From: an uncultured Clostridium sp.
GTDB taxonomy: Bacteria; Bacillota; Clostridia; TANB77; CAG-508
NCBI GenBank assembly: GCA_947653235.1
Contig: CANTGH010000001.1
Span: 247,191-311,190, forward strand
Length of the DNA stretch: 64,000 bases
Direction: 5' to 3'
The position numbers and the translations under genes are program-made. This document shows, piece after piece, positions 4,045-50,130 of this stretch. Numbering within the stretch: the first letter of the stretch is position 1; each line of letters starts with the position of its first letter. Under the pieces are notes generated by a model. The model searched no databases. It was not told where the DNA came from and saw only the letters and a program-made list of their open reading frames with translations.

Positions 4045-4130
4045 TGCGATTATGTCGCAAAATAGCAAACGAAAGAAAAAACTAAAAAATCGGGATAATT
4101 TTTTGCTATTTTCGTAAAAAATCCTCTACC
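4045..4130 (-). ncRNA. candidate ~110-nt small RNA running from the copy-A promoter to the terminator
   Basis: A perfect extended -10 promoter at 4135-4163 is followed within ~100 nt by a strong terminator. The transcript contains an extended imperfect hairpin (CGAAAATAGCAAA ... TTTGCTATTTTGCG) and no ORF or RBS. Confidence 0.3.
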
Positions 4131-4212
4131 TTTTATTATATCACATTTACGTTAATTTGTCAACTTGACTTTTTGTAAAAACCTGCTCTCACTTGATTTT
4201 ACTCTGGTTTTT
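4126..4212 (-). repeat. conserved promoter-bearing repeat, copy A (TTGACA-N17-TGATATAAT)
   Basis: It shares about 90 bp with copies at 38445-38530 and 50045-50130. This includes the upstream block CAGTAAAAnCAAGTGAGAGCA, the palindrome GTCAAnTTGAC over the -35, and the transcribed start GGT(A/G)AGGnTATTTTT. Confidence 0.5.
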
Positions 4213-4220
4213 GGCTTTTT

Positions 4221-6908
4221 TTATTTTGTTTCAAACCAATTTTGTCCTTCCTGCAAATCTACTTCTAAATCAACTAACAAGTTCGCTGCTTTTTGCATAC
4301 AAGTTTTCAAAATTTGGCTGACTTCCTCTTTTTCCCTTTCTAATGCTTCTATAATCAATTCGTCATGAATTTGCAGTACCATTTTAGATTGCAACTTTCG
4401 TTTTTTTAGTTCTCGGTAGACATCAATCATCGCAATTTTCATAATATCTGCTGCGGTTCCTTGAATGGGTGCATTCATAGCCGCTCTATCTCCGAATTTA
4501 CGAACCATATAATTATTGGAACTGATTTCTGGAATGTATCTCCTGCGATGAAACATTGTCTCTACATAGCCATTTTGCTTTGCTTTTTCAATTTCTTGCT
4601 CCATAAATTTTCCAATTCCATGATATTGCTCTAAATAAGAATCAATATATTGTTTTGCTTCTTTTCTACTAATTCCTAGCTGTTCTGCCAACCCAAAATC
4701 ACTGATACCATATACAATACCAAAATTGACTGCTTTGGCATGACTTCTCATTTCCTTTGTCACTTCTTCAACTGGAACACCAAATACTTGCGAAGCACAA
4801 ATTTGATGAATATCATGATGTGCTGTAAATGCCTTTATCATCCCTTCATCTTGCGACATATGAGCCAAAATGCGAAGCTCAATTTGAGAATAATCCGCAT
4901 CTAAAAAAACTTTGCCTTTTTCAGCTTTAAATAATTTTCGAATTTGTTTTCCTAAGTCTGTTCTTGTTGGAATATTTTGCAAATTCGGATCCGTACTGCT
5001 AAGTCTTCCAGTTGCTGCAACAGTTTGGTGAAATGTTGTATGAATACGGTTCGTTTTTGGATTAATATAGGGTAACATGCCTTCGACAAATGTCGAATTT
5101 AATTTTGAAACTTGCCTGTAAAACAAGACTTTTTCAATTATTGGATGTGTATTTCTCAATTTTTCTAAAGTGTCAACATCTGTTGAATATCCATTTTTGT
5201 TTTTCTTTTTATATGGCAATTCTAGTTTTTCAAATAAAATTTCGCCTAACTGTTTGGGTGAATTGATATTAAATTCTTGACCAGCTAATTCATAAATTTC
5301 ATGACTTAATCCTTGAATCTGCTTTTTCAATTCTTGTGACATTTTTTCAATGTCGTCTTTATCTACTAAAACACCTGTATAACGCATTTGTGCTAGAATT
5401 TCTGCACTTGGCATTTCAATATTTCGAAATAAATCTAATTGTTTTACTTCTTTTAATTTTTGCTCTAAAATCAGCTTTGTTTCTCCGATTATGTAACAAT
5501 ACATAGCATATTTATAATCTGTTTTTTCTTCTTGAATTTCTTGATCAAAAAAGCTAGTTTGTATATCTTCTTTTGGTTCTTGCTGATAATAATCTTCTAT
5601 TTCTAGGTTTAACTGTTGTTTTGCAATTTCCTCTAAAGAATACAAATTGGATCCAGAATTTAATAAATACATAGCAATTTTGGCATCAAACATCATATTT
5701 TGCGGATTTAGTCCAGCTTGTTTTAATAAGATAAAATCCTCTTTTATTTCATATCCACATTTTAAAATTTCATTATTTTCAAAAATTGGTTTAAAAATTT
5801 CATTATCAAACGGAACACAATATACTTTTTTTTCAGATTTTAAGTAAAGATTTATTGTTTCAATTTTCTTTTTTATGATGAAAGCATCTGGATCCTCTAT
5901 CAATTCGAAATAATAGTATATTTCTTTTTGTTCATAAATTTTATCTAGTATTGACTGGGGTTGATTAGTAGGAATATAAATAAATAAATCTTCAAGCTTT
6001 TTAGTTGGCTCATTTTCTTCACTTTCTAACTGAAAACGTTCGATAAAGCGCTTAAATCGTAATTCTCTGAATAATTCTAAAACCGCAGGCTTATTCCAAT
6101 CTTGCACTTGAAAGGTAGCTAAATCTTTTTCAATGGGTGCTTTTTTATCAATGGTGCCAAGTGTTCTGGAAAGATAGGCTAATTCTTTATTTTCTAATAA
6201 TTTTTCTTTTTGTTTTCCTTTGATTTGTGTATCACCATTCTCAATAGCTTCATATAATTGGTCAATATTTTTGTATTTTTGTATTAGGTTTAAAGCCGTC
6301 TTTTCGCCAATTCCAGGTACACCAGGGATATTGTCTGAGGCATCTCCCATTAATCCTTTAACTTCGATTAATTGTTCTGGTATAATACCATAAGTTTCGA
6401 AAATTTTATTGGCGTCAAAATCTTCCGTTTCTGTTTTTCCTTGTTTGGTTCTAGGAATACGAATAATAACTGTATCTTTCGCCAGCTGAAATGAATCTCT
6501 ATCACCTGTTAGCAAAATAACTTTTAACCCTTGCTGTGCTCCCCAATCACTTAATGTTCCTAAAATATCATCTGCCTCATAACCTGATTTTTCAATGATT
6601 TTTAAGTTCATCGCCTCTAACACTTTTTTTATAATTGGCATTTGAGCCGCTAATTCATCTGGCATTCCTTTACGTGTTCCTTTGTACTGACTGTACATTT
6701 CATGCCTCTTGGTTGGTGATTTTACATCAAAGGCAACAACCAAATATTCTGGTTTTTCATCTTCTAAAATACGAAACAAAATCGTCAAAAAACCATAAAC
6801 TGCATTGGTATAAGTTCCATCTGCTGTCTGTAGCATTTTACTTCCCATGATGCCATAAAAAGCTCGATTTAAAATACTATTCCCATCAATTACAATCAAT
6901 TTCTCCAA
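4221..6908 (-). CDS. polA: DNA polymerase I
   Basis: 895 aa. It has an N-terminal 5'-3' exonuclease domain and a C-terminal polymerase domain (RRxAKAVNFGIVYGISDFGL, VLQIHDELIIE). Confidence 0.95.
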   Translation of the reverse strand: MEKLIVIDGNSILNRAFYGIMGSKMLQTADGTYTNAVYGFLTILFRILEDEKPEYLVVAFDVKSPTKRHEMYSQYKGTRKGMPDELAAQMPIIKKVLEAMNLKIIEKSGYEADDILGTLSDWGAQQGLKVILLTGDRDSFQLAKDTVIIRIPRTKQGKTETEDFDANKIFETYGIIPEQLIEVKGLMGDASDNIPGVPGIGEKTALNLIQKYKNIDQLYEAIENGDTQIKGKQKEKLLENKELAYLSRTLGTIDKKAPIEKDLATFQVQDWNKPAVLELFRELRFKRFIERFQLESEENEPTKKLEDLFIYIPTNQPQSILDKIYEQKEIYYYFELIEDPDAFIIKKKIETINLYLKSEKKVYCVPFDNEIFKPIFENNEILKCGYEIKEDFILLKQAGLNPQNMMFDAKIAMYLLNSGSNLYSLEEIAKQQLNLEIEDYYQQEPKEDIQTSFFDQEIQEEKTDYKYAMYCYIIGETKLILEQKLKEVKQLDLFRNIEMPSAEILAQMRYTGVLVDKDDIEKMSQELKKQIQGLSHEIYELAGQEFNINSPKQLGEILFEKLELPYKKKNKNGYSTDVDTLEKLRNTHPIIEKVLFYRQVSKLNSTFVEGMLPYINPKTNRIHTTFHQTVAATGRLSSTDPNLQNIPTRTDLGKQIRKLFKAEKGKVFLDADYSQIELRILAHMSQDEGMIKAFTAHHDIHQICASQVFGVPVEEVTKEMRSHAKAVNFGIVYGISDFGLAEQLGISRKEAKQYIDSYLEQYHGIGKFMEQEIEKAKQNGYVETMFHRRRYIPEISSNNYMVRKFGDRAAMNAPIQGTAADIMKIAMIDVYRELKKRKLQSKMVLQIHDELIIEALEREKEEVSQILKTCMQKAANLLVDLEVDLQEGQNWFETK

Positions 6909-6992
6909 GTGATAGCCTCCCTTTTTATTTTTGGTATAAATATTATTGTGAACATCTTATCATTTTTTAGTCTAAATAGCAACCTTATTTGA

Positions 6993-7033
6993 TAATAAAA
7001 AACAGATTAACTATTTTTATTCGTTAATCTGCT
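6993..7033 (-). terminator. rho-independent terminator after the GH25 gene
   Basis: Hairpin AACAGATTAAC-loop-GTTAATCTGCTT followed by a T-run on the minus strand. Confidence 0.6.
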
Positions 7034-7048
7034 TAAACTTTAAATTTT

Positions 7049-8836
7049 CTAATTCGCTTTTCTGCCTTCCTTTCTTCCGAACATCATGTAATGTTCCAAA
7101 GCTCTTGAAAAATTAGAACCAAACTCGGCTTGTAAATCACCGTGATAACTTATATATTTTTGCACATTAAATGTGCTACTCGCTTGTCTTCCTTCATGAA
7201 TTCCGTTATTGACAAAATGGTTAAAGGCAGCTACATAATCTGAACTAAATGCTCTTTTCAAATCCGCATATTTCTCTAAATAATACTCTGGATCAAACAC
7301 AGGACTAGCACTGCGCCCTTCTCGTTTCCCACAAGCTTCATAATGTTCTTTTAAAGCCACTGCATTATTTCCAAAAGCTTGCTTTAAATCATTGTATTTG
7401 TTTGCATAATAATCAGCATCAAACAAATCATTGGCAATATTGATTGGTGGATCATTGATTGGTTGTCCACCTTCTGCTAACGCATAATATTTTATGTACT
7501 CTGTACCCAATCTTTTTTTAACATAACTACTTTGTGAATTGGCGTAATTTCTTACATTAAAATCTTTACTTCCTTGTCTTCCTTCTAAAGCACCAAATTG
7601 TACAAAATGGGACAAAGCACCTGTTTTACTAGCATAACAAGCTTTTTTCACATCTTCATTCTGATCCAAATAATAATTTACCAAAAAATATTTACTACCT
7701 TGTCTTCCTTCATAAATTCCATTGTTGACAAAATGATTAAAAGCTGCTACATAATCCGTTCGGAAAGCTTGTTTTAAATCCGCATATTGGTTGATATAAT
7801 AGATAGGATCAAAAGCTGGTGATGCACTACGACCTTCTCGTCTTCCGCAAGATTCATAATGTTTTTTTAACGCCGATGCATTGTTGCCAAACGTTGCCTT
7901 TAAATCTGGATAACGATTCGCATAATAAGTCGCATTAAACAAACATTCTGCTACATTAGCATGATGGTAAGAACGATAATATTGATAATCAATATCGACA
8001 TCCACTGGTGTACCAATTCCTGGAACACTTCCTTTATCTGTACATTGCCACATGGTATAATGTCCACCATAAGTTGGTCTATCAACATAATAATGCGCTA
8101 CCCAAACATCGTAGGAAGAACGCAAACTTGGACTCCAAGTATTATTTAAATAATTTGTACTACCATACAAAGATGATTTATAACCTCTGCTATTGACATA
8201 ATCTAAAAATACTTTGGCATTCGCATTTAATTGTGCATGCGATAACCCATTGGTTCGATAATTAGGTACATTATTAAAATATTCAAAATCATAAGCAATT
8301 GGGAATTTGACATCATACCCTCTGATTAAATCTAGCGTAACTGCTGCTTCTTGAAGAGCTTCTGCTTCGTTTAATGCTGTTGAGAAAAAGTATACACCAA
8401 CATAAATTCCGTTTTCTAGTGCCCCTTTTATGTTAGCTTCAAATTTCGGATCAATCGCAATGTTTCCTTCTGCTGCATAGCCTCTAAAAGCACATCGAAT
8501 CATCGCAAATTTAACCCCCGAGTCAGCAACTGCTTTCCAATTGATATCTCCTTGAAAACGTGAAACATCAATTCCAACTGCTGTTGTTTCATTTTGATAA
8601 GTTGCTATCAAACTTCCTATACTATCTCCTGATGAGCTTGTCAGCGTGGATGATGTCATTAATAATTTGATGTATAATGGATCCTCTTCTTCGTTTGATG
8701 ATACACTAACATCTGGCATTGTCGTTGTAATTCCTTCATAGGTAACTGTTTCGTCACTTGAAGTCGCTAAACAATTAACAGATAAACCTAGTAAGAATAG
8801 TAAAAATACAAATAAAATTCTTTTCTGTAATTTCAT
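7049..8836 (-). CDS. secreted GH25 family muramidase (lysozyme) with C-terminal tandem repeat modules
   Basis: 595 aa with a signal peptide. The GH25 core reads VGIDVSRFQGDINW...GVYFF, followed by about six modules of ~44 aa. Confidence 0.8.
   Translation of the reverse strand: MKLQKRILFVFLLFLLGLSVNCLATSSDETVTYEGITTTMPDVSVSSNEEEDPLYIKLLMTSSTLTSSSGDSIGSLIATYQNETTAVGIDVSRFQGDINWKAVADSGVKFAMIRCAFRGYAAEGNIAIDPKFEANIKGALENGIYVGVYFFSTALNEAEALQEAAVTLDLIRGYDVKFPIAYDFEYFNNVPNYRTNGLSHAQLNANAKVFLDYVNSRGYKSSLYGSTNYLNNTWSPSLRSSYDVWVAHYYVDRPTYGGHYTMWQCTDKGSVPGIGTPVDVDIDYQYYRSYHHANVAECLFNATYYANRYPDLKATFGNNASALKKHYESCGRREGRSASPAFDPIYYINQYADLKQAFRTDYVAAFNHFVNNGIYEGRQGSKYFLVNYYLDQNEDVKKACYASKTGALSHFVQFGALEGRQGSKDFNVRNYANSQSSYVKKRLGTEYIKYYALAEGGQPINDPPINIANDLFDADYYANKYNDLKQAFGNNAVALKEHYEACGKREGRSASPVFDPEYYLEKYADLKRAFSSDYVAAFNHFVNNGIHEGRQASSTFNVQKYISYHGDLQAEFGSNFSRALEHYMMFGRKEGRKAN
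7052..7939 (-). repeat. intragenic tandem repeats (~130-bp units) encoding the Y-x-DLK-AFG-N-ALK-HYE-CG-REGR modules
   Basis: Protein-level repeats such as YYANRYPDLKATFGNNASALKKHYESCGRREGRSASP recur about six times. The repeats are also visible at the DNA level. Confidence 0.5.
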
Positions 8837-8959
8837 ATTATTTTCCTCCTTTTTTTATTATTTTTATTATATCACTTTGATTTTTGCATGTAAAGTTTTT
8901 TCATTTAATTGTAAAAAAAAGTAATCTTAAATTTACAATTGATTTATTATGTATATTTT

Positions 8960-10291
8960 TTAGCCATAGCGATATTTCTTTCGATTACCAATCAAAAATG
9001 CGTAGCTAACACCCAAAGCTAATATTTCAGCAATCACCACTGCCAGCCAAATTCCATTTAAGCCAAATAAAGCTGGTAATAAGAAAATCATAGCCACTTG
9101 GAATACTAACGTTCGTAAAAACGAAATCACAGCAGAAATCAAGCCATTATTCAGGGCCGTAAAGAAAGACGAACTAAAAATGTTAAACCCACTAATAAGG
9201 TAAGACATAGCAAATAAACGAATGGCTGTTGTCGTCATTTGTAACAATTCTGCATCATAGCTAACAAAAATCGAAGCCAATAAACGAGCTGATATTTCTG
9301 CCATTCCTGTCATCACAAGAGAAGTGACAGCCATTAGGCGAAAACTTTTTTTCAGCAAATTCTTGAGTTCCCCCGTATTTTCTGCCCCATAATGATACCC
9401 TACAATCGGTGCTGTTCCAATGGAATATCCCAAATAAGTTCCAACAAAAATAAAACCAACATACATAATAATCCCATATGCCACCACTCCATCCGATCCA
9501 GCATACTTCATAAGTTGCCTATTATACAATATATTGACAAGTGACATCGATATATTATTCAACATTTCCGAAGAACCATTGGTACAAGCCTGCCAAATCG
9601 CTTTTGCGTCAAATTTTGCCTTTCTTAATTGAAAAGGACTTTGATTTGGCATAATAAAATAAATGAGCGGAATACATCCTCCCACCAACTGGCTAATACC
9701 TGTTGCCAATGCGGCTCCCAATACCCCCATGTGACATACATACATAAATATAAAATCAAGCAACATATTCATCACACCTGTGATGATGGAAATCACCAAA
9801 CCAAACAGAGGTCTTTCAGCCACAATCAAAAAACTCTGGAAACAGTTTTGCAAAGCAAACGGAACCAAAAAAATAAGAATTGTCCTTCCATATGTTACGC
9901 AATCTTTTAGCATATCGTTATCAGCGCCTAGTTTTAATGAAATCGTTCTCATGAAAGGAAAACCAATCACCGAAAAAATTACGCTAATTAAGACAATTAA
10001 GTAAATTAACATAGAAAAATATTCATTCGCTTTTTCAGTTTTCCCTTCTCCTATTGTTTTTGAAATCAAAGCACTTCCACCTGTTCCAAACATAAAACCA
10101 ATGGTCCCTAAAATCATCAAAGCTGGCATGATTAAATTAACTGCTGCAAAAGCATCTGCCCCCACGCAATTGGCCACAAAAATTCCGTCGACCACACCAT
10201 AAATTGAGGTAAATATCATCATAATGATGGTTGGAATAGTAAATTTGATTAGTTTTGTATATGTAAAATGTTCTGATAATTGTATTTTCAT
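8960..10291 (-). CDS. MATE family efflux transporter
   Basis: 443 aa with about 12 TM segments and a MATE-type N-terminus (FTIPTIIMMIFTSIYGVVDGIFVANCVG). Confidence 0.8.
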   Translation of the reverse strand: MKIQLSEHFTYTKLIKFTIPTIIMMIFTSIYGVVDGIFVANCVGADAFAAVNLIMPALMILGTIGFMFGTGGSALISKTIGEGKTEKANEYFSMLIYLIVLISVIFSVIGFPFMRTISLKLGADNDMLKDCVTYGRTILIFLVPFALQNCFQSFLIVAERPLFGLVISIITGVMNMLLDFIFMYVCHMGVLGAALATGISQLVGGCIPLIYFIMPNQSPFQLRKAKFDAKAIWQACTNGSSEMLNNISMSLVNILYNRQLMKYAGSDGVVAYGIIMYVGFIFVGTYLGYSIGTAPIVGYHYGAENTGELKNLLKKSFRLMAVTSLVMTGMAEISARLLASIFVSYDAELLQMTTTAIRLFAMSYLISGFNIFSSSFFTALNNGLISAVISFLRTLVFQVAMIFLLPALFGLNGIWLAVVIAEILALGVSYAFLIGNRKKYRYG

Positions 10292-10888: not shown

Positions 10889-10898
10889 TCTTCTTTCT

Positions 10899-31348: not shown

Positions 31349-31494
31349 ACAAATACATTTGCTTAATTGTATTCGTTAAAGAGTTGTATTAGAACTCTTT
31401 TTTAACTCACATTTTTTCTAAAAAAAAAGACAAAAGAATCATTTTTAGAACCGCTTTGCCAACTCCCTCACAGGATAGTAAAATTCCAAATAAA

Positions 31495-31537
31495 ACAAAA
31501 AAAGACCGCACTTAATAAACATTCGGTCTTTCTTATA
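31495..31537 (-). terminator. rho-independent terminator after the CorC-family gene
   Basis: AGACCGCAC-loop-TTCGGTCT followed by a T-run on the minus strand. It is nearly identical to the hairpin at 1486-1512. Confidence 0.6.
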
Positions 31538-31581
31538 TTATACCATACTTTAAATCAATTTGTCAAGCTTTCTTCTGCCTT

Positions 31582-36106: not shown

Positions 36107-38366
36107 TTATATATCTTCACCCATCAATTTATATTTAAGCCCCGTATTCCTCTTCTTGACCTCAGAATTCCCAATCATAAATTCAATCAAATTCTGATTT
36201 CCAATGATAATGAGAAGTTTTTTCGCTCTTGTCATACCTGTATATAACAAATTTCGTGTTAATAGCATATTCGATGCCTGTGGCACCACTAAAATCACCA
36301 CATCAAACTCACTTCCGTTGCGCTTTATGAATCGTAATGGCATAGGCATGTTCTAATTGTTCCAACTCTGAAAAAGCATACCAAGCCACTTTCCCATCAT
36401 CAAACTGAACTTGGAGGTTTTTCTCCTTTCCATCAATTTTCGTAATAATTCCTAATTCCCCATTAAAAATACCGCTCCCACGATTGGCACCAAACTCCGT
36501 TTTACCATATTGCTTTTCCCAATATAAATCATAATTATTCTTAATTTGCATCACGCGGTCTCCTTCTCGAAATTCAATGTCGCCATACGTTTTACTAGAG
36601 ATTTCATTGGTTTTGGGATTTAAAATGTTTTGCAAATTCTTGTTGAGTTCTTTGGTTCCCAACTTTCCTTTTTTGGTTGGGGTTAAAATTTGGATATTTT
36701 CAATAAAATCATAATCGCCATAATTTTTTAGTCTTCCATTACTAAGGGAAACCACTTGTGCCAACATTTTATCTTGCATGCCTTCTTTGATATAGAAAAA
36801 ATCCTCTTCGGCGTCTTCTACATAATCTTTTTTGCCAATAAAACTAATCCCTTCATTCACAGCATGCGAATTGACAATAATTTTACTTTTTTCGGCTTGC
36901 CTAAAAATTTTATTCAAAGCCACTGTGGCAAATTTTTCACTTTCAATCAAATCTTTCAAAATACTGCCTGGTCCCACAGAAGGCAACTGATTAACGTCTC
37001 CCACAAACACCAATTTGGTTCCCAAATAAACCGCTTTGACGAGATAATTCATCAAAAATACATCCACCATTGACATTTCATCAATAACAAGAACATCACA
37101 ATCAATCGGCGAAATATCATTGTCCACATTGCCCAATTTATCGTCTTCAATTTGGCCGATTTCTAGCAAGCGATGTATGGTTTTGGCATCTTCACCTGTT
37201 GTTTCCGTCATTCTTTTGGCCGCTCGACCAGTTGGTGCACATAAAACAATTTTCTTTTTGTGGGCTTTATAAATTTCTATCAAACAACGAATAATTGTCG
37301 TTTTTCCCGTACCTGGACCGCCTGTAATAATGGAAACATTGTGCTGATTGACTTGTTCAACTGCTTCAAATTGCTTTTCAGACAACTCGATACCAATGTC
37401 TTTCTCCTGTTTTTGAATTTCTTTCTTGAAATTTTTAATTTGCTTCACATTTTCACAAGTTTCCAGCAAATGCAATCGGTCAGCAATATTTTTCTCAGCT
37501 TTATACAAAGGATACAAATAAATCCAATCCTCTGAGCCTCGCTTTTCTATCACAATTTGCTTTGCAACATTAAGAGCAATTAAATTATTTTCAATCGCCT
37601 CTTTTCCGACTTCTAAAATCTGTTCCACATAATCCATCAGATTTTCTTGTAACACACAGGTATTTCCGTTGTAACTAGACACCAAAAGCGCATATTTGAT
37701 ACCACTTTTGATACGATCATCGTTATTTTGGCTAATCCCAATTTGCATGGCAATTTTGTCAATTTTGTTAAAGTCAACACCATAGACAAGATCCACCAAA
37801 ATATAGGGATTTTCTGCGATTTTTTGAACAGCGTCCTTTCCCAAAGCATCATACACCTTTTTAGCGTTGTTAGCACCTATCCCAAATCCTTCTAAGAAAC
37901 TGACAATTTGCCAAACTTCCCATTTTTCATTAAATTCTTCACTAATTTCCTGTGCTCTTTCTTTTGTGATGCCTTTGACTTCTGCAAGCTTTTGAGGCTC
38001 TGACTGAAAAATCTGCAATGTCTGATCCCCAAAGTGGTCAATAATTCGTTTGGCAGTGGCAGGTCCAATGCCTTTTATGGTGCCACTTCCTAGATATTTG
38101 GCTAATGCTTCTGTGGTTTGGGGCATGATTTTTTCAAAGGTATCAATTTTAAATTGTTCGCCATATTCTTGATGAACCACCATTTTTCCGCATAATTTTA
38201 AGCAATCTCCCTCTGTTACAAAAGGAAGATAGCCTACAACTGTTATAATTTCCTGTTCATTGCTTGAAAAAACAGCGATGGAATAATCGTTGTTTTCATT
38301 TTGATAAATAAATTCTTGAATTTGTCCTTCTATTTCCATGTTTACCTCGTATTTAAATTGTATCAA
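36107..38366 (-). pseudogene. recD2: RecD2-like (YrrC-type) ATP-dependent DNA helicase, frame-disrupted by 1 nt near 36316. This may be a sequencing error
   Basis: The 685-aa ORF carries the Walker A ITGGPGTGKTT and ends ...AITIHKAQRK*. The 80-aa ORF in the next frame continues with GSEFDVVILVV...TRAKK, which is helicase motif VI. On the coding strand the junction reads CAA-C-GGA where CAA-GGA (QG) is expected. Confidence 0.85.
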
Positions 38367-38401
38367 ATGAACTGAAAATTTGCAATAATTTTATAATTTT
38401 T

Positions 38402-38440
38402 TCGCACAAAAAACGGAAATAACTAAAATTATTTCCGAAA
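38402..38440 (-). terminator. promoter-proximal hairpin plus U-tract immediately downstream of the copy-B promoter (terminator/attenuator)
   Basis: The minus-strand RNA reads CGGAAATAA-uuuuag-TTATTTCCG followed by TTTTTTGTG, about 15 nt after the predicted +1. Confidence 0.5.
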
Positions 38441-38444
38441 AATA

Positions 38445-38530
38445 CCCTCACCTTTTATTATATCACATTTTCTATCTTACGTCAAGTTGACGAAATAGTA
38501 AAAATATGCTCTCACTTGTTTTTACTGGGT
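38445..38530 (-). repeat. conserved promoter-bearing repeat, copy B (TTGACG-N17-TGATATAAT) upstream of recD2
   Basis: Nearly identical to copy C over about 85 bp. Confidence 0.5.
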
Positions 38531-38542
38531 TTGCTGTTCTTT

Positions 38543-38893
38543 TTATTTCTTGAATGTAATTTCTTGCGTCCAAAATTTTTTAAATCCTGTGAAATCCACA
38601 TCTTGGCACCAGAAATCTTTAACGGCTTTGAAATCTACATCTTGACACCAAAAATCTTTTATTCCTGATAAATCAATTTCTTGGTAAAAAAAGTCTCTTA
38701 CTTCTGGAAATTCAATTTCTTGGAATAAAAAATCATGTACCTCTGTAAAGACTTTTTCTTGCTTTGGGGTTAATTCCAATCGAAAAAAGTTTTTCAATTT
38801 ATTTAAAGCACCATATTGGGTTGGTAAATTTCCGCCTACGGTATTGTCTTTTAAATTATATTCTTTCATTTCATTCCTCCTTGGTAATTTCAT
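38543..38893 (-). CDS. hypothetical protein with internal KDFWCQDVDF repeats
   Basis: 116 aa. The C-terminal half is built from ~11-aa repeats of the form (V/I)xDFxxQ(D/E)(I/V)(D/E)F. Confidence 0.45.
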   Translation of the reverse strand: MKLPRRNEMKEYNLKDNTVGGNLPTQYGALNKLKNFFRLELTPKQEKVFTEVHDFLFQEIEFPEVRDFFYQEIDLSGIKDFWCQDVDFKAVKDFWCQDVDFTGFKKFWTQEITFKK

Positions 38894-38980
38894 CTATCAT
38901 TATATTTAACTTGGATTTATCATATACCATAAATTAAAATAAATCAATGGTTTTTATGTTAAATTTTGGTAACAAACGTA

Positions 38981-40280
38981 TTACAAATTAGTAACATTTT
39001 CGACAATTAATTCATTGAAATTCACTTTTTCTACACGACCTGATACAATTTGATTAATTCTATCTTGATTGGCTTTTGTTTTAGCAAATACGTAATTGGC
39101 TGTATGACCTTTATAAAATTCGCCTTCTTTTTCTTCAATCAATACTTCTACTTCTTTACCAACAAATTGTTTGTGATACCACTCTTGATTTTGATGTGAT
39201 AATTGAATTAACTTTTTACTTCTTTCTTCTTTCATCTCATCTATCACTTGATTTGGCATAGTAGCAGCTTTTGTACCACTTCTTCTAGAATACTTAAATA
39301 TATGGGTTTTATAAAATTTTATTTGTGTCAAAAATTGATAGGTTTCATTAAATTCTTCTTCTGTTTCACCTGGAAAACCAACAATAATATCTGTCGTTAA
39401 TATCACATCTTTATATGTATTTCTCAACTTTTGCACAATTTGTTCAAATTGCTTGGTTGTATAGCGTCGGTTCATTCTTTGTAAAGTGGCATCGCATCCA
39501 CTTTGTAAAGATAAATGAAAATGATGACAAATTTTATGCATTTCCTTTAATCTTTTTAAAAAATCATCCTCGATTAAAAGTGGCTCAAGAGAACCTAAAC
39601 GAATTCTTTCAATTCCATTAATTTGATTGATTTGTTCTAATAAATCAATCAATTGATACTTCTGCTTAAAATCCTTTCCATAAGAGGCAACATGAATCCC
39701 TGTGATAACAACTTCTTTTATCCCATTTTCTGCTATTTTTTGGATTTCATTTACTACATTTTGAGGATTTCGACTTCTTACTCTGCCTCTGGCATAAGGA
39801 ATTAAACAATACGAACAAAATCTGTCACAGCCATCTTGAACTTTAACAACTGCTCTTACCTTTTCGGTATATGTAATATCGCCAAAATCACCATATTGTT
39901 GACTTTCAAATACGTCTTCTACTGATTGCCTTTTTCCATTTGATAAATATTCTTCTATATGTTGAACAATGTCTTTTTTCTCATTTGTTCCCAAACATAG
40001 CTCAATTTCTGGCATATTTTCTATTTCTTGTTTTGCCACTTGCACATAACATCCTACAGCAACAATGGTAGCATTCGGATTGATTTGTTTTGCACGTCTT
40101 ATGATTTGTCTGGATTTTCGATCTGAAATATTGGTAACTGTACAGGTATTGATAATATAAATGTCTGCCTTTTCATGAAATTCTACAATCTTATCACCAT
40201 GTTCTATAAATTTTTGGATCATTCCATTAGTTTCATATTGGTTGACTTTGCAACCGAAGTGTGTAAAATGCTACTTTCAT
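38981..40280 (-). pseudogene. mtaB: radical-SAM methylthiotransferase (MtaB/MiaB family), frame-disrupted by 1 nt near 40255. This may be a sequencing error
   Basis: The 413-aa ORF has CDRFCSYCLIPYARG and a TRAM-like C-terminus but lacks the MTTase N-terminus. The upstream frame encodes MKVAFYTL then RLQSQPI*, where MKVAFYTLGCKVNQYETNGMIQKF is expected. On the coding strand the junction reads CTT-C-GGT where CTT-GGT is expected. Confidence 0.8.
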
Positions 40281-43712: not shown

Positions 43713-44087
43713 ATGGAGAACAATCATGCACAATCTAGCAATACAACTATGGGCGCTGTAGGTCAAGTAATCGGTAGATTTGTTGTAGCAGCCATTATAT
43801 TAGGTATTACTGCATTTTTTACGCCAAACTTCACCATTAATAATATTTGGTCTTTGGCAATTGCAGCAATCGTCTTAAGTGTTATGGATTATTTAATTGT
43901 AAAATTTACAGGATTACACGCAATGGCCTTTGGTAAAGGTTTTGTTGGATTTGTATTAGCCGTCGTTACATTATATGTAACACAATTTTTAGTTGCTGGT
44001 TACTCAATTACGTGGATGGCAGCCATTATTGGTGCTCTAATTTACGGTGTTATTGATTATATATTGCCTGGTGAACAAGGTGTATAG
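43713..44087 (+). CDS. small 4-TM membrane protein (phage holin family-IV/DUF360-like)
   Basis: The start is MENNH with AAGGAGG upstream. It has four hydrophobic helices and a GxxxG-rich sequence. Confidence 0.4.
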   Translation: MENNHAQSSNTTMGAVGQVIGRFVVAAIILGITAFFTPNFTINNIWSLAIAAIVLSVMDYLIVKFTGLHAMAFGKGFVGFVLAVVTLYVTQFLVAGYSITWMAAIIGALIYGVIDYILPGEQGV

Positions 44088-44094
44088 TAATTAG

Positions 44095-44151
44095 CCAAAA
44101 AATAACATAGATAGAAATAAATACTATCTATGTTATTTTTACATTATTACA
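44095..44151. terminator. strong bidirectional terminator
   Basis: A 14-bp stem AATAACATAGATAG / CTATCTATGTTATT with an A-run before and a T-run after. Confidence 0.6.
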
Positions 44152-44235
44152 CTATTCAATGCACGAAAAATCAAATCTTTAAACAAATCTATTGACAAAC
44201 TTACATAAATATGATATAATAAAAGGTTAGCCTTT

Positions 44236-45184
44236 TTATCTAAAAACCTCATAAAAATTTTTAAAAATATATCCTTGTTCTCGTAAATAGGAAATGAGCA
44301 TTGGCAAAGTTTGAACTGTATACGATTTATCACTCGCATCATGCATTAAAATAATAAGGCTTCCGATCACCCTGCATGGTTTGTTGCAAACAAGACATTA
44401 AAGCTTCTGGCGTTGTATTTCCTTCTGCATCACCTGTCAAACAATTCCAGTTGGTATAATTCACACCATAACTGTGTAACAATTCTTTCGCTTCTGCTTT
44501 AATACTAGCATATCTTCCGCCACTAGAACCGCCTGGAAAACGAAAAAGGTATGTGTTATAGGATTGATTGTTTAAGGCATTTCGAATGGCATTTTCACAC
44601 TTGATATATTCATCAAAAACCGTATCTTTCGAAGTGTATATTTGGGAATACTGATGAGAATAGCCATGATTGGCGATATAGTGACCTTCTGCATATTCAC
44701 GTTTTACTAAATCTGGATTTAATTCCACACGACTACCTAATACAAAAAATGTGGCTGGAATATTTTCTTGTTTTAAAATATCTAAAATTTGTGGTGTGAT
44801 ATTTTTTGATGGACCATCATCAAAGGTTAAATAGGCAACTTTCTCCTCTGTATGGTAAATATTCGTAATTTCTTGCTGTGCATTTGGATTTTGTTTTGGA
44901 ACAAATTTGGTTTTGATTTGCTCTAAATCGTGCTTTTGGATTTGTAAATGTTCTCCTTCATAAATAGCTAGTCCTGTCTTTTTATCGGATTTCTTGGCGG
45001 TTGTTTTCTCTGTTTGTGCATGATTTTTTAAATAAATAGAAATGCAAATACTTACAATCATGACAACGAAACAGCACAAAATAATCGCTCCACAAATAAT
45101 AGCTTTTCTTCTCAATTTGCTTTTATTTAATTCTACTTTATTAAATTCAAAATCTTCTTCTTCGTCTTCTCTATCATATAACAT
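44236..45184 (-). pseudogene. polysaccharide deacetylase (NodB homology domain, PdaA-like), frame-disrupted by 1 nt near 44363. This may be a sequencing error
   Basis: The 281-aa ORF has YLTFDDGPS...HGYSHQ and ends ...QGDRKPYYFNA*. The next frame reads IILMHDASDKSYTVQTLPMLISYLREQGYIFKNFYEVFR*. On the coding strand the junction reads GAT-C-GGA where GAT-GGA is expected. Confidence 0.8.
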
Positions 45185-45281
45185 TTTGCTTCCCTCGTTT
45201 CTTATTATACTATATTTTACATTTTTTTCAAGCGAACATACAAGAAAATTTGCTTTTTATTAAAATTCTAGCAACAAAGTT

Positions 45282-45331
45282 AAAAAAGCTATGTTAGAAT
45301 ACTATTTCTCACTCTAACATAGCTCTTTTTT
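45282..45331. terminator. bidirectional terminator
   Basis: A 12-bp stem AGCTATGTTAGA / TCTAACATAGCT followed by a T6 run. Confidence 0.55.
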
Positions 45332-45707
45332 ACGCTCTTTTTTTTAACCAGTACATCCGCTCTTTTATTTCGAGCAGTCTTTTTTTGTTGGAATAAAGAT
45401 CCGCAACCTGTTTTACGATGACATCATATTTTTCATAATACTCTAAAGTCTCACAAATGCATTTATAAAACTTTGTACACGCCTCTTGAGCATTGGAATA
45501 TCGAAATCGAATTTTTCCACAAGAAATTGTATCTGACTTGTTGAAAATTCCCAATTCCTCAGGATAAACATCAAATACCATCTCATACATTTTAAAAATG
45601 CAATACGCCTCAATCATCAATCTACACATTGGCACAACCAATCTTATGAAGCTCAAACATACCAGCAACAATATAACACCTAAAATTATCCGTAGCATTA
45701 TTCCCAT
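45330..45707 (-). CDS. hypothetical small membrane protein
   Basis: 125 aa with an N-terminal TM. It has a consensus promoter (TTGACA-N17-TACAAT) and the RBS AAGGAGG. Confidence 0.4.
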   Translation of the reverse strand: MGIMLRIILGVILLLVCLSFIRLVVPMCRLMIEAYCIFKMYEMVFDVYPEELGIFNKSDTISCGKIRFRYSNAQEACTKFYKCICETLEYYEKYDVIVKQVADLYSNKKRLLEIKERMYWLKKRA

Positions 45708-45766
45708 AAGAATTCCTCCTTAATTTTATTTATCTTTATTGTACCATTTTTTACATAATTTGTCAA

Positions 45767-47186
45767 CTAAAATATCTTTTCAAATTTATCCTTATGAAGC
45801 TCTCTTGGCACTTCAATTGGATATTGATTCGTAAAACAGCCTTCGCAGAAACTTTTCATATTGGAATTTTCAGCAATTTTCCTTAAATTCTCCAAACTCA
45901 AATATTCCAATGAATCTACACCAATTTGCTCACGAATTTCTTCGATGGTCTTTTTCCTTGCAATTAATCCATCTTCTGTTGTAACATCAGTTCCGAAATA
46001 GCACATACCAATAAATGGTGGAGCCGCAATTCTCAAATGAATTTCCTTCACACCTTCTCTTCTTAAAATTTGAACCAATCTCGTCATCGTGGTTCCTCGC
46101 ACAATGGAATCATCTATTAAAATAATTCTTTTTCCCTTAATATTTTGTTTCAAAGGATTTAATTTTAGAACCACTTGTTTTTTTCTTTCGCTCTGTGTCG
46201 ATTGGATAAACGTTCTACCTATGTATTTGCTTTTGACAAAAGCCATACCATATGGAATTTTAGACGCTTTCGAATAACCGAAGAGCGGCATCTAGACCAG
46301 AATCTGGTACGCCTGCTACAAAATCGGCTTCTACTGGAGCCTGCATACTCAAATAGCGACCTGTTTCTTCCCTAAATTTATGAACACTATAACCATCCAC
46401 AATTGAATCTGGTCTTGAAAAATAAACATATTCAAAAATACATAAACCATCTTTTTCATTCGTTCTAAAATTTGTCGTTGAAACTTGATTTTGATAAATC
46501 GTTACCACTTCACCTGGTTTAATATCTCGTACAAACTCTGCCCCTAAAATATCTAGTGCACAACTTTCTGACGAAAACACATAATCTCCATCCAATTTTC
46601 CCATACACAACGGACGAAAACCATTTGGATCTCTTACTGCAATTAGTTTTTGGGAACTCATCACCAATAAAGAATAAGCTCCTTTTATGTATTTCATACT
46701 ATTGAAAACTGCTTCTTCAATCGAATGTGTTTTTAATCTTTCACGTGCAATAATATAAGCAATAACTTCGGTATCGCTTGTAGAATTGAAAATTGCTCCA
46801 TTTTCTTCTAATTCTGCACGCAACTGTGCTGTATTGGTAAGATTTCCATTATGAGCAATACACAAATTTCCTTTTTTATATCTTGAAAAAATTGGCTGAG
46901 CATTTTCTTTTTTAGCCGCACCAGTCGTCGAATAGCGAACATGTCCTATTCCCATTTTTCCCTTTGGTAAATCACGCATAACGGAATTGGTAAAAACATC
47001 TGATACCAAACCTACATCTTTATGACATGTAATAACGCCCCCATTATTAATGGCAATTCCGCAGGATTCTTCTCCTCTATGTTGTAAACTCGACAATCCA
47101 ACACAAATTGGAAATGCTAACTCTTCTTCATTTTTTAAAGAATATATTCCAAATATTCCACATTCTTCTTTCATTTTCTTCTCCAT
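45767..47186 (-). pseudogene. purF: amidophosphoribosyltransferase, frame-disrupted by 1 nt near 46279. This may be a sequencing error
   Basis: The 308-aa N-terminal part carries the Ntn glutaminase CGIFGI motif and ends ...GVPDSGLDAALRLFESV*. The 174-aa C-terminal part carries the PRTase motif RIILIDDSIVRGTT. On the coding strand the junction reads CTT-C-GGT where ...AAL-GYSKASKIPY is expected. Confidence 0.85.
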
Positions 47187-47224
47187 TTAAAAATAATGAT
47201 AGAACCTAAGGTTTATCCTTTCGT

Positions 47225-47253
47225 TCCTATCATTATTATAACTTTTTTTTACA
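47225..47253 (-). promoter_or_regulatory. purF-proximal promoter (TTGACG-N17-TATAAT) followed immediately by a hairpin and U-tract
   Basis: On the minus strand: TTGACGaaattgtaaaaaaaagtTATAAT, then AATGATAG...CTATCATT plus ATTTTTAAAT directly before the purF RBS. Confidence 0.4.
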
Positions 47254-47299
47254 ATTTCGTCAATATAAAATTTGAGGTATTTTTTGAATTTATCAATGT

Positions 47300-47380
47300 T
47301 TTACATAAAAAACTCTACTTTTTATTATATCATATTTATGTAAATTTATCAACTTGACTTTGTGACCCAAATATGCTATA
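47300..47380 (-). repeat. partial copy D of the conserved promoter repeat (TTGATA-N17-TGATATAAT); a + strand TTGACT-N17-TATAAT shares the palindromic -35
   Basis: It shares the TTATTATATCAtATTT, TCAACTTGAC and AAATATGCT blocks with copies A-C. Confidence 0.4.
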
Positions 47381-47384
47381 ATAA

Positions 47385-47425
47385 AAGATAGGGGGTAAAA
47401 TCGATATTTTACCCCCTATTTTTTC
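47385..47425. terminator. bidirectional terminator
   Basis: TAGGGGGTAAAAT-cgat-ATTTTACCCCCTA followed by a T6 run. Confidence 0.6.
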
Positions 47426-49164
47426 TAATAATTCGCAAAAGTGCTCTCATATTTGCCAGAACCAATGCTTCCAACCGATATTGAGCCTGTTCCGCCATCA
47501 CCGCCTTTATATGCTACGTTTTCTATTCCTCCATTGGCTGTTATTTGTCCTTTATTAGCGTAATTTGTTTTATAAAATATATTAATCGATCCTCCTCCAG
47601 ATGAACCTCCACTAAAAACGTTATCTCCGCCGCCGCCCCTTTTTCCATTAGCTTCTATATCAGCATTATTTTGTATCGCATTAGCATATATAACTAACAA
47701 TCCACCTGTTCCATTCTCTCCATTTAAGTCAGGTCTAGTTCCATTTCCAGCATGACCAATTGCACCAGGATTACCAGCTCCACCTCCTGAATACGCATCA
47801 CCTTCAATCCTTGAACCTTCACCACCTGCACCACCATTTTCTTCTCCATCTGCTATGGAATGACCAGTCATTTCAATCGCATGTCCTCCTCCTCCAGTTC
47901 CCCCAGAATAAGAAGTACCTTTTGCACCACAACCTCTTCCCATAAATGGATTGGCATTTCCATTTGCTCCAGAACCTCCTCCACCAGTTGCTCTACTTGT
48001 TCCATTTTCACCATTGTTTCCTTCTGTATTTGTTGTGGATGGTATAATTCCCCCTGCACCACCTACTGCCGGTACATATTCAAAATTTCCCTCTGTATTT
48101 TTCCACAAATATACATTCTCTCCTTCAGCTCTAGCTCCACAAGCTGTCATACTGATCATTCCATTGTTAGTTAGTGTGCCTGTACAATAAATAATCATTC
48201 CTTTCGGTCCTCCGTAGCCTTCTTCACTTTGGACAGCTCTTACTTTTACTCCATTATTGATTGTTAAATTTCCTTCTACTTTTAATACTACCGTATTTTG
48301 AGCATATTCACTATCTGTTGCTACATCAGCTTGCGTTCCAAAAACATAAATATTTTTTCCTTCTTCTTTTCCACGCCAAACACCTTCTACATCTTGTATT
48401 CCATCCAGAACTAAGTCTCCTTTGTTATGAATAACATCTAATGAATATGTCTTAGTTTCTGTCTTTCCTGCTACTTTTACTTTTTTAAGTCCACTACTAC
48501 TGATTTTGGATATACCTTCCAATAATGAATTTGAAATTTCTAATACATTACTTACCTCTTCACTTTTCACAATCGCTGTTCTTCCATTGCTTCCTTTTAT
48601 TCTAAAATAATAAATTCCATTACTCGTCACTTCAAATCTATCTGTAGTTCCTTCTTTCAAAACAGCTCCATTAAGTGGTTGTATTTCTTGTATTGTTCCA
48701 TCTGTTGTGCTAGCAATAACTTGCAATTCCACTTTGGCTACTCCTTCTGCTGTTGTTATTTTGTCCACTCTTCCTGTTGGCTTTGCTCCCATCGATTCGT
48801 CTTCCAAGATGATTTCTCCTTCATTCGTAATGGTCACATCTTTGCCCTTATAATTTACTAATAAATCTGTTTCTACTGGAATGACTGTAGCATTTGAATC
48901 CTCTTTTCGAAGTTCTTTTTCTAATTCTTCTGCTTTTTTGGCATTATCCCAATGATTAGCTAATACATCAATCATCACAGCATTATAGTGCAAACGGATT
49001 TCTTCTTCAATGCTTGCCAAATTACTTTTGTCTGCTGTATTTGTCGCACGTTTCAAAATTCCATTTTCTCCCGCTATTAAATTCAAACTCACTCCAGCCA
49101 AAATTAATAATACAATAATAGTGACAACAAGCGCAATTAAAGTAATTCCTTATTTTCTCTTCAT
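47425..49164 (-). CDS. Gly/Asn-rich cell-surface protein with pilin-like N-terminus, interrupted by an in-frame TAA after codon 4
   Basis: The reading is ATG AAG AGA AAA TAA GGA ATT ACT..., giving MKRK*GITLIALVVTIIVLLILAGVSL.... The ORF finder re-initiates at a TTG (MAGVSL). The C-terminal ~230 aa are extremely Gly-rich (GGxGG, GNG). Confidence 0.5.
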
Positions 49165-49298
49165 CTTTGGTTTTCTCCTTTTATTTTTTATAGAGGCAGA
49201 ACTGAACTTTTTCTGCCCTCATTATTGATGTTATTATAACTAATCATTTCAATTTTTGCAAGATTTTCTTCCAATGTAATCAAATTGTAAAATTTGAA

Positions 49299-49631
49299 TT
49301 AAGGAACCATATTGTTTAAATAATCTTTTCCTTGCTCTTTTTCAAGAACTTTCATATTAAATTTTTCTTTTTCTAATTTATGTAAAATATTTAATGTTTC
49401 ATCTTCCGACTCCAAATCAATGACCACCAAATTATTATAAAAATTCCTTCCATAGGTCAACTCTCGAATGTATTCTTCAATTCCATTTTCGACATTTTTT
49501 ACAGTCATGACAAATTTTATGTTCTCTTCTAATTTTTTATAAGTATTAAAATTTACACAGTCCTGAATTATACTAAATAAGCCATATATACACAAAACCC
49601 ATAAGACTAATTGCATGAAAAAATCTAACAT
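49299..49631 (-). CDS. hypothetical protein with N-terminal TM helix
   Basis: 110-aa ORF. Confidence 0.4.
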   Translation of the reverse strand: MLDFFMQLVLWVLCIYGLFSIIQDCVNFNTYKKLEENIKFVMTVKNVENGIEEYIRELTYGRNFYNNLVVIDLESEDETLNILHKLEKEKFNMKVLEKEQGKDYLNNMVP

Positions 49632-49686
49632 ATTATCACTCCTTTTGTATATATTATGTAACTTTGTCGAATTTGTGACGATTCAC

Positions 49687-49971
49687 TTAATATCTGTTAT
49701 TTTCGACAATTTTAATAATATCTGCAATGTATTTTCCAATGACTGGAATATTAAGTGTAACGATTTTTTCTAGAAGAATAATTAAAATAGCTGTTATGAT
49801 GGTAACACCAATCCCTATCCCAACACCTCGGCTAACTCCAGCCCAAAAATTGCGCCTAAAAATCTCTTTTTTATTGCCCAAAATATAAATTAATTCTTGC
49901 AAATTTTGTTCCTCTAATTTTCGGCTCAATCGCTCTAAATTCCTATTTAATTTTCCAAACATAAACACCAT
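49687..49971 (-). CDS. hypothetical protein with C-terminal TM helix
   Basis: 94-aa ORF directly downstream of the copy-C promoter. Confidence 0.4.
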   Translation of the reverse strand: MVFMFGKLNRNLERLSRKLEEQNLQELIYILGNKKEIFRRNFWAGVSRGVGIGIGVTIITAILIILLEKIVTLNIPVIGKYIADIIKIVENNRY

Positions 49972-50044
49972 CCCTTTTATAGAATGGCGTTTTTTTTGAT
50001 TATTTATGCAATTTACTATATTTTTTGCTTTGAGAGAGCAAAAA

Positions 50045-50130
50045 TACCCTCACCTTTTATTATATCATATTTTCAGACTTATGTCAAGTTGACGAAATGG
50101 CAAAAATATGCTCTCACTTGATTTTACTGA
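50045..50130 (-). repeat. conserved promoter-bearing repeat, copy C (TTGACA-N17-TGATATAAT)
   Basis: See copy A. Confidence 0.5.

Follow-up and report, generated by a model that had tools for sequence, protein, structure and literature searches.

Two kinds of described element come close to the one reported here: sibling small RNA (sRNA) genes and propagated promoters. The csRNA genes of streptococci are defined as regulator-dependent intergenic promoters followed by a terminator; there are 2-6 per genome, their RNAs measure 51-202 nucleotides (nt), and they fall into many types (PMC3091779). Putative mobile promoters, the outcome of promoter propagation (Matus-Garcia et al. 2012, PMC3488235), are recognised as segments of more than 50 nt with at least 80% identity, located between -50 and -150 and flanked by non-homologous coding sequences. 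We analyzed a 64,000-nt stretch of a contig from an uncultured Clostridium sp. (CANTGH010000001.1; hereafter ‘the window’) that carries three copies, A, B and C, of a promoter module with an invariant upstream box. The module is undescribed, yet it is of these known kinds, and its single unusual feature is that the box lies at the position of a mirrored -10 element. With a probability of about 0.4, we read the copies as a small regulon, composed of sibling mini-RNA genes and a few mRNAs, that would be controlled through the box as a shared putative factor-binding site. Judged from the sequences, the module is most likely the mark of a small family of tiny-RNA genes that is evolutionarily mobile and under common regulation, and not of a transposon.

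The likeness to the CiaRH-dependent csRNA genes (PMC3091779; PMC8186281) takes several forms. In both cases a genome holds several sibling units, each consisting of an intergenic promoter with a shared regulator site and then an intrinsic terminator. Short RNAs (51-202 nt there, ~45-115 nt predicted here) of many types occur in varying genomic contexts, and the regulon also includes protein-coding genes. The module differs in that its leader resembles a Shine-Dalgarno sequence rather than the complement of one, and in that its RNA, which here is predicted from sequence, is less conserved than its promoter. The cis-sites are also unlike. The CiaR site is a direct repeat, TTTAAG-N5-TTTAAG, next to the -10, whereas the module carries a contiguous asymmetric 17-20-mer at about -57 to -75. 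By analogy with CiaR and the csRNAs, we propose that a putative DNA-binding factor recognises the box and would thereby set the activity of all copies together. The output would be short RNAs or a common 5' leader, and the units would be gained, lost and relocated between genomes as whole cassettes that reach from box to terminator.

The module and its invariant box

A preliminary description of this DNA had reported a promoter-bearing repeat on the minus strand, and the sequences it listed are present where it placed them. The complete copies contain the following features, in window coordinates:

4112..4204, minus strand: copy A, whole module from box to leader (nhmmer E=2e-20; promoter 12/12 with TG)
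4184..4203, minus strand: copy A, invariant box AGTAAAATCAAGTGAGAGCA
4135..4169, minus strand: copy A, palindrome GTCAAGTTGAC (4159-4169), -35 TTGACA (4158-4163), 17-bp spacer and TG-extended -10 TATAAT (4135-4140)
4012..4130, minus strand: copy A, predicted transcript of ~110-115 nt, with the leader GGTAGAGGA-T6 (4122-4130), a long imperfect stem and then a terminator hairpin (4020-4045) with T-run
3859-3887, minus strand: separate promoter of the S-adenosylmethionine (SAM) riboswitch and metK, downstream of the copy A terminator
38435..38527, minus strand: copy B, whole module (nhmmer E=2e-22)
38507..38526, minus strand: copy B, box AGTAAAAACAAGTGAGAGCA
38457..38491, minus strand: copy B, palindrome GTCAACTTGAC (38481-38491), -35 TTGACG (38480-38485) and TG-extended -10 TATAAT (38457-38462)
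38408..38452, minus strand: copy B, predicted RNA of ~45 nt, with the leader GGTGAGGGTATTTTT and then the hairpin CGGAAATAA/TTATTTCCG (38414-38437) and T6
38357..38385, minus strand: recD2's own promoter, TTGCAA-N17-TGATACAAT, 3' of the copy B terminator
50037..50129, minus strand: copy C, whole module (nhmmer E=5e-24; promoter 12/12 with TG)
50109..50128, minus strand: copy C, box AGTAAAATCAAGTGAGAGCA
50059-50093, minus strand: copy C, palindrome (50083-50093), -35 (50082-50087) and -10 (50059-50064)
50045-50054, minus strand: copy C, leader GGTGAGGGTA
~50019-50046, minus strand: copy C, weak A/U hairpin without T-run (within 49972..50093)

All three copies share the invariant box AGTAAAAtCAAGTGAGAGCA, an A/T tract, a palindrome of back-to-back -35 hexamers, a consensus extended -10 and, downstream of the -10, the leader AAAAGGT(RRR)GG..T5. 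The repeat is real and not a product of chance. With up to three mismatches allowed, the box pattern CAAGTGAGAGCATATTTTT matches the window exactly three times (4177-4195, 38500-38518 and 50102-50120), compared with a mean of 0.10 matches in shuffled sequence, and none of 100 shuffles reached three. The palindrome GTCAASTTGAC with up to one mismatch occurs five times against 0.65 expected, and TGATATAATAAAAGGT has four exact matches and one with a single mismatch. Over the ~93-nt module, pairwise identity is 88% for B and C, 77% for A and B and 76% for A and C. A generic consensus scan ranked the three promoters at the top of the region (A and C at 12/12, B at 11/12, all with the TG extension and a 17-bp spacer).

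Two further members, one of them an opposed pair, have the promoter and leader but not the box:

47324..47352, minus strand: copy D promoter TTGATA-N17-TGATATAAT, then AAAAAGTAGAGTTTTTT; no box; 11/12
47354..47424, plus strand: copy D mirror promoter TTGACT-N17-TGCTATAAT-AAAAGATAGGGGG; 11/12, with TG and a 17-bp spacer
44192..44232, plus strand: box-less member TTGACA-N17-TGATATAAT-AAAAGGTTAGCC, with the same -10 and leader; 12/12

Copy D (47300-47420) had been taken for a partial copy. Its promoter stands, but the box is absent and the upstream half turned out to be the plus-strand mirror promoter, so that D is, by its predicted elements, a true bidirectional promoter pair. The plus-strand face, D(+), runs straight into a hairpin (47388-47419) with T6 that doubles as the terminator of the open reading frame (ORF) at 47425-49101. 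The member at 44192(+) points antisense to the 3' end of a polysaccharide deacetylase gene (44339-45184, minus strand). A, B, C, both strands of D and 44192(+) all show the sigma-70/sigma-A arrangement of a TTGACA-type -35 and a TATAAT-type -10 at 17 +/- 1 bp, each with the TG extension and a spacer of 17 bp.

Part of the 90-bp similarity reflects the local promoter consensus, since TTGACAAAnTTAcrTAAATATGnTAtAAT also describes the -35, spacer and -10 of many unrelated window promoters (for example at 1548, 27190, 45766 and 11875) and is the organism's general strong-promoter consensus. This commonness is what speaks for independent convergence of the copies on a consensus, with no shared function. 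Only three parts are specific to the family: the 17-20-nt box, the palindromic -35 and the leader followed by T5. Among ~20 strong intergenic promoters compared, the leader AAAAGGTrrrGG occurs only in A, B, C, both faces of D and 44192(+). Together with the excess of box matches in the window, and with the recurrence of the box in five other assemblies with the same palindrome, spacing and leader, this makes convergence hardly credible: it is contradicted for A, B and C and possible only for the box-less D and 44192(+). The claim that the repeat is a dispersed promoter-bearing module rather than a set of independent promoters thus holds, the module recurring in several related genomes.

Searches of other genomes (see below) raised the number of copies with a box to 15. 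They come from six sources, namely the window and a further five assemblies or bins of uncultured Clostridia; loci outside the window are given L numbers. The module extends from about -75 to +15. Its box is non-palindromic, 17-20 nt long and located at about -57 to -75; in 14 of the 15 copies 17 nt of it or more are the same, while the neighboring 15 nt are free to vary. This uneven conservation points to function, that is to selection on the box, rather than to recent copying. Between box and -35 lies an A/T-rich tract that resembles an UP element. The -35 region reads TTGTCAA-N0/1-TTGACAA, two hexamers back to back, and is followed by a 17-bp spacer and a TRTG-extended consensus -10; together they form what we predict to be a near-optimal sigma-A promoter with a G as its first transcribed base. 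All 15 copies have box, palindrome and promoter, as is expected of a cis-site shared in the manner of csRNA genes, and in all of them the distance from TTGAC to TAyAAT is 18 nt (the 17-bp spacer).

The left half of the palindrome lies 15 nt from the box (14 in A and L004) whether the palindrome's center is 0 or 1 nt long; the gap of ~25 bp given earlier is corrected by these measurements to 14-15 nt. Because the center varies while each half is tied to its own flank, the arrangement fits two back-to-back -35 hexamers and not the rigid dimeric operator that had been suggested over the -35. The proposed Spo0A box likewise does not generalize: TTCGTCA occurs only in B and C, other copies having TTTGTCAA or AAAGTCAA without CG, and on the strand that would carry the 0A box TGNCGAA, only B and C read TGACGAA, whereas the others read TTGACAA or TTGACTT.

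Monomeric class I sites of the AraC family (MarA/SoxS/Rob) are asymmetric, ~20 bp long and located upstream of the -35 with constrained spacing and orientation. The box is like them in each of these respects, which is pure analogy; in sequence it is unlike the marbox, and the analysis turned up no candidate protein. To our knowledge, the box has no convincing counterpart among the CcpA, CodY, Rex, LexA, CtsR, HrcA, TnrA, WalR and LytTR/VirR boxes, nor among sigma-54, sporulation and extracytoplasmic-function sigma sites, boxA, the DnaA box, parS or the rolling-circle nick site CTTGAT; we treat these comparisons as leads, not tests. Arms that would close a hairpin around the box are complementary beyond expectation overall (Fisher p = 6e-4), an effect driven by four copies (L011, B, L018a and L015), with five copies showing none. 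A small protein encoded in the box (MLSLDFT on the mirror strand) was rejected: there is no synonymous variation, the start alternates inconsistently between ATG, GTG and CTG, there is no ribosome-binding site, and lengths range from 7 amino acids (aa) to open-ended.

There is a likeness between the box region, read on its top strand (TAAAAt-CAA-GTGAGAGCA-TATTTTT), and the region of -10 and leader (TATAAT-AAAAG-GTGAGGGTA-TTTTT), for example 38498-38520 compared with 38437-38457 on the minus strand. The box may have descended from a duplicated -10/leader segment, or one factor may read both.

Upon reading the left side of the module on the opposite strand, we found TTGACA-N14-TRTG-C-TCTCAC-TTGATTTTAC: the box occupies the place of a mirror -10 and discriminator, TG motif included. 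TRTG precedes the box on the mirror strand in 11/15 copies, and in the profile search nearly every copy gave an opposite-strand match of model positions 23-69 (the central 47 nt) to themselves. In the window, a -10 element on both strands is found only in the box-less D (mirror -10 TATAAT), the mirror position in A, B and C being TCTCAC; L049, a box-less promoter after polA, also has a real -10 there (TATTAA). Taken with the fixed spacings on either side, 15 (or 14) nt from box to left half and always 17 bp in the forward direction, these features suggest a two-faced RNA polymerase docking site, in which the -35 hexamers overlap and the box replaces the mirror -10 and discriminator. The mirror side would then either hold polymerase unproductively, and through competition tune the forward promoter, or be used with an unrecognised sigma factor to produce divergent or antisense RNA. 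The symmetric bidirectional promoters of Warman, Grainger and co-workers (PMC12825309, PMC10268837) are alike in that pseudo-symmetric DNA could engage polymerase in two ways, and competition between polymerases at such promoters is documented (PMC12825309). Copy D, as a genuine divergent pair, shares this trait. The axis of the module, however, lies in the overlapping -35 hexamers, with starts ~75-80 bp apart, and where a mirror -10 would be, A, B and C have conserved sequence of another kind. In the 2021 work of Warman and Grainger the axis reportedly lies in the -10 region.

We nevertheless hold a two-faced site to be distinctly unlikely. A sigma-A -10 requires an A at -11 and a T at -7, and TCTCAC has neither; we know of no sigma factor with a -10 of this kind. 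Use of the mirror side as a promoter for divergent genes was rejected, because the divergent genes in question, murC in L017 and an ORF in L011, have ordinary promoters of their own between box and start codon. For most copies, all that mirror transcription could do is enter the end of an unrelated upstream gene in antisense direction, and a disabled -10 alone would not need to be invariant. A composite, in which the box is the mirror -10/discriminator of an asymmetric docking site that is read by an unrecognised sigma factor or keeps polymerase poised and competing, and that spreads as a self-insulated cassette and makes new tiny RNAs with Shine-Dalgarno-like leaders, appears quite improbable.

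Short predicted RNAs and the genes behind them

A hairpin with a T-run closes the unit in 11-12 of the 15 box-bearing copies, in line with the intrinsic terminators of csRNA genes, and no conserved ORF was found in or beside the units on either strand. The hairpin begins at about +16 in B, L003, L004, L005, L007, L011, L014, L015 and L018a, and also in the box-less D(+) and L049, and the predicted RNAs from units terminated in this way are about 35-50 nt long. In A and L012 the terminators lie ~110 nt downstream. Overall, the stand-alone units are predicted to give RNAs of about 45-115 nt. Past the terminator, a second promoter precedes the next gene in B (recD2), L004, L005, L007, L015 and L018a, while in L003 and L014 the next gene is convergent. 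The module promoter cannot serve genes so placed, and most copies therefore appear to be stand-alone units for short predicted RNAs. For the same reason the earlier picture of a carrier of an outward promoter fails for most copies, in which a hairpin and T-run follow within about 16-40 nt and the next gene is convergent or has its own promoter.

The window copies illustrate both arrangements. Copy B lies between a 116-aa ORF and recD2, 106-191 nt upstream of the recD2 ATG (38339; called gene 676 aa), with terminator and second promoter in between. Copy C lies between an FGE-like ORF and a DUF5665 gene, 74-158 nt upstream of its ATG at 49971, and we found no second promoter before that gene, so that C probably drives the DUF5665 mRNA. 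L018b, upstream of rsmI, is like C in having neither a T-run terminator nor a second promoter and probably also drives an mRNA. Of the downstream units assigned in the preliminary description, a terminated RNA for A and a small membrane protein gene for C remain; in B and D, additional promoters separate the module from recD2 or the purF-like gene, contrary to the earlier assignment.

The hairpin close behind the promoter in most copies raises another reading, that the strong promoter serves the downstream gene and the hairpin with its T-run is a conditional terminator, which polymerase would pass in response to some signal. The purine-rich 5' leader, GGU(RRR)GG(A) followed by U5, is Shine-Dalgarno-like and would act as a sensor or as a 5' stabilizer of the STAB-SD type; Shine-Dalgarno-like leaders are mRNA stabilizers in Firmicutes. 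The absence of a second promoter before the DUF5665 and rsmI genes fits such a role, as does the L014 leader, which can pair with the 3' half of its terminator. The downstream genes are, however, functionally unrelated (metK, recD2, rfbD, RNase J, pyrK, spoIIE, rsmI and others) and mostly have their own promoter past the terminator; L003 and L014 face a convergent gene, and D(+) fires only into a terminator. We found no conserved antiterminator structure and no match to a riboswitch or leader family, and we consider an attenuator very improbable.

Known RNA classes did not account for the units. Rfam gave no match at the window copies even at E up to 10 and none at the gathering threshold in ten related loci; in the whole window it recognized only a SAM riboswitch and an L10 leader. 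A type I toxin-antitoxin system was rejected, as neither strand holds a conserved small ORF, and so was a role as tRNA or rRNA promoter, as no tRNA, tmRNA or rRNA gene lies near any copy. Sites complementary to the leader are not clearly above chance in the window.

Distribution and turnover across genomes

The window has a G+C content of 32.5%, and its genes include spoIVA and spoIIID; the host is an uncultured spore-forming member of the Clostridia, and related contigs carry the label ‘uncultured Clostridia bacterium’. We scanned AGTAAAANCAAGTGAGAGCA in one genome per species across 185,579 species genomes, a set that lies outside the window's own species. The full architecture appeared in the metagenome-assembled genomes (MAGs) of four species of uncultured Clostridia, with 1-3 copies each, next to five chance matches without the architecture. 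One metagenome assembly gave five copies with a gapped pattern, of which two have the same sequence as MAG copies, and a profile search added L018b, whose box has a single substitution. Copy number is low, about 1-4 per genome. The 10 kb beyond the window (a ribosomal-protein operon) hold no further copy. In viral contigs the 16-base core of the box had 22 matches, all due to chance and none with promoter architecture, and a phage origin was rejected on this ground. Human and mouse polymerase chain reaction primers were all that the literature offered for the box sequence.

In one contig (L018) two divergent module copies lie 3.4 kb apart, at 5330-5425 (minus strand) and 8855-8926 (plus strand), and one of them bears the sole box variant seen, CAGGTGAGAGCA. 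In the MAG CANSTR both module copies are preceded by a hairpin-forming repeat, GTAGGrACACGGGGmACCGTGTyC (L003 at ~5545-5575 and ~5750-5770, L007 at ~1870-1900), which looks like a separate REP-like family of that genome.

The copies adjoin genes without a common function (polA, metK, recD2, rfbD/rfbA, RNase J, pyrK/pyrD, an asparagine-synthase-like GATase, murC, spoIIE and rsmI), and these are non-homologous. Synteny was rejected as an explanation, since the flanks elsewhere are unrelated to those in the window except for polA in L014 and a distant GATase in L010. Outside the box, copies are 61-85% identical to one another, and best matches are often found in other species (A with L004, 81%; B with L018a, 83%, and with L015, 82%; C with L018b, 77%), so that the same unit types adjoin different genes. 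Terminators are homologous among B, L015 and L018a, and between L014 and L005, despite different neighbors. This indicates that the persisting unit reaches from box to terminator.

All three window sites have empty counterparts in close relatives. Behind polA, the module is present in the window and in L014 (77% aa identity); L049 (73%) has only the box-less promoter there, and L047, L048, L050 and L051 (82%, 79%, 67% and 64%) have an empty site. The site after the 116-aa ORF, that of copy B, is empty in L014 and L048, and L056, L057 and L058 (DUF5665 proteins 86%, 77% and 72% identical) have no module at their syntenic FGE-like/DUF5665 junction. Such presence/absence polymorphism at orthologous sites is expected of a miniature inverted-repeat transposable element (MITE), as had been suggested earlier. 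The module resembles MITEs, Correia elements and BOX/RUP elements in being short, intergenic, dispersed and non-coding and in that such elements can carry promoter or terminator activity. It differs from them in lacking terminal inverted repeats, target-site duplications and a cognate transposase, in its low copy number and in its mosaic conservation, and the MITE idea was abandoned on these grounds. The left end and the region from +95 to +175 share only reverse-complement words of 5-8 nt, which are A/T-rich or -35-like and differ between copies. A check for target-site duplications found none: words of 4-8 nt in the flanks are A-rich and do not exceed those in shuffled sequence, and comparison of the filled and empty DUF5665 junctions showed no duplication. 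No transposase or recombinase lies consistently near the copies. With empty sites in relatives and neither inverted repeats nor duplications, the units appear to be gained and lost as cassettes.

Radical-SAM gene, 116-aa ORF and polA lie within 4-5 kb in relatives (L014 and L048), and in the window the same genes are ~30 kb apart (4221-6908 compared with 38543-40222), with copies A and B following them. A rearrangement or insertion may have had its breakpoints at or near A and B.

Such turnover would also be expected if the module were a propagating mobile promoter in the sense of PMC3488235, that is selfish or neutral DNA spreading to intergenic sites. Its built-in terminator would insulate neighbors, so that insertions are tolerated; the box would be the cis-site of whatever moves the module, and C and L018b would have been co-opted as gene promoters. 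Like putative mobile promoters, the copies are homologous promoter segments beside non-homologous genes, and their presence varies among relatives and crosses species. B and C, 88-89% identical over 93-95 nt with non-homologous flanks, come close to the published definition, and the empty sites in relatives and the recurrence of unit types beside unrelated genes in different species fit as well. A, however, is only 76-77% identical to B or C, and of the two others C lies between -50 and -150, whereas B is mostly outside. Unlike putative mobile promoters, most module copies are insulated by a terminator and do not drive the neighboring gene, and conservation is concentrated in the box upstream of the promoter. 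Neither inverted repeats, target duplications nor a consistently linked transposase or recombinase points to movement of this kind, copies are few per genome and absent from viral contigs, no mobilization mechanism can be named, and the invariance of the box beside varying flanks argues for functional constraint. We therefore consider selfish spread unlikely.

The self-contained layout, the low copy number and the cross-species unit types instead favor regulator-dependent sibling sRNA genes, and the conserved cis-elements fit the co-regulated set that had been proposed as one of two possibilities. Several points weigh against this reading. A contiguous invariant 17-mer is atypical for a transcription-factor site, no candidate regulator gene linked to the units was found, and the reading gives no account of why the position of the box mirrors that of a -10. 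The leader motif is loose (GGUAGAGGA, GGUGAGGG, UAGGGGA), the RNA part being less conserved than the promoter, and in L003, L007, D(+) and L049 it is buried in the terminator stem, so that a free seed is not universal. Since C and L018b seemingly drive protein genes, the leader may belong to the promoter module rather than be an sRNA seed. Finally, a second, unrelated family in the window has the same layout (see below), and promoter-then-terminator units may thus be a widespread arrangement in this genome.

If the units are expressed, they would form an undescribed family of very small RNAs and, through the 20-nt box, a compact regulon marker in a host clade, uncultured spore-forming gut Clostridia, without described regulatory biology. 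The box would then be a direct handle for finding the regulator. The near-optimal promoter with its built-in terminator offers a clean natural case of the turnover of promoter/sRNA units without transposon hallmarks, and the mirror -10 geometry of the box is unusual. If the units are inert, what is left is a strong promoter that has propagated, and that is nothing out of the ordinary.

Neighboring features of the window

The second promoter-then-terminator family has two copies on the minus strand, at 1471-1553 and 31488-31571, with promoters at 1548 and 31566. Both follow the pattern TTGACA-N17/18-TAwAAT, then AAAGACCGAA..TTTATTAAG..CGGTCTTTTTTTG, a hairpin and a T-run, and they are 81% identical over 63 nt. 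One lies after an M23 peptidase gene, upstream of rpsJ, and the other upstream of spoIIID, making the sequence of stop codon, promoter and terminator a recurrent layout in the window genome.

Below copy D, at 47190-47263 on the minus strand, a promoter TTGACG-N17-TATAAT is followed at once by the hairpin GATAGGAAC...GTTCTATC with T5. This unit, which has no Rfam match, is located upstream of the purF-like GATase gene (46260-47186) and may be an attenuator. The purF-like gene itself (45767-47186, minus strand) appears as two overlapping ORFs, one for the GATase (46260-47186, 308 aa) and one for the phosphoribosyltransferase (45767-46291, 174 aa). Gene calls in the related contig L041 divide it likewise; a frameshift, a programmed event or a genuine pair of genes could each account for this.

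Downstream of copy C, the DUF5665 gene has its ribosome-binding site and start codon covered by a hairpin (49965-50005, minus strand) that reads ACGCCATTC-loop-GGGATGGTG-TTTATG. It is kept in L056, L057 and L058 with paired changes (ACACCATCC...AGGATGGTG), which suggests that this small membrane protein would be under translational control.

Above copy B, the last part of the 116-aa ORF consists of three tandem repeats of 39 nt (13 aa) that carry the motif KDFWCQDVDF (38562-38678, minus strand); no Pfam family matches the ORF, which shares 87% identity with its L014 counterpart. On the other side, recD2 (36107-38366, minus strand) is followed by an overlapping 80-aa ORF (36107-36349) with a UvrD_C_2 domain, which places the C-terminus of the helicase in a separate frame, as it does in L041 and L042. 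The two Rfam matches in the window are ordinary: the SAM riboswitch (74 bits; 3749-3849, minus strand) lies upstream of metK, and the L10 leader (49 bits; 57839-58019, minus strand) lies upstream of rplJ-rplL.

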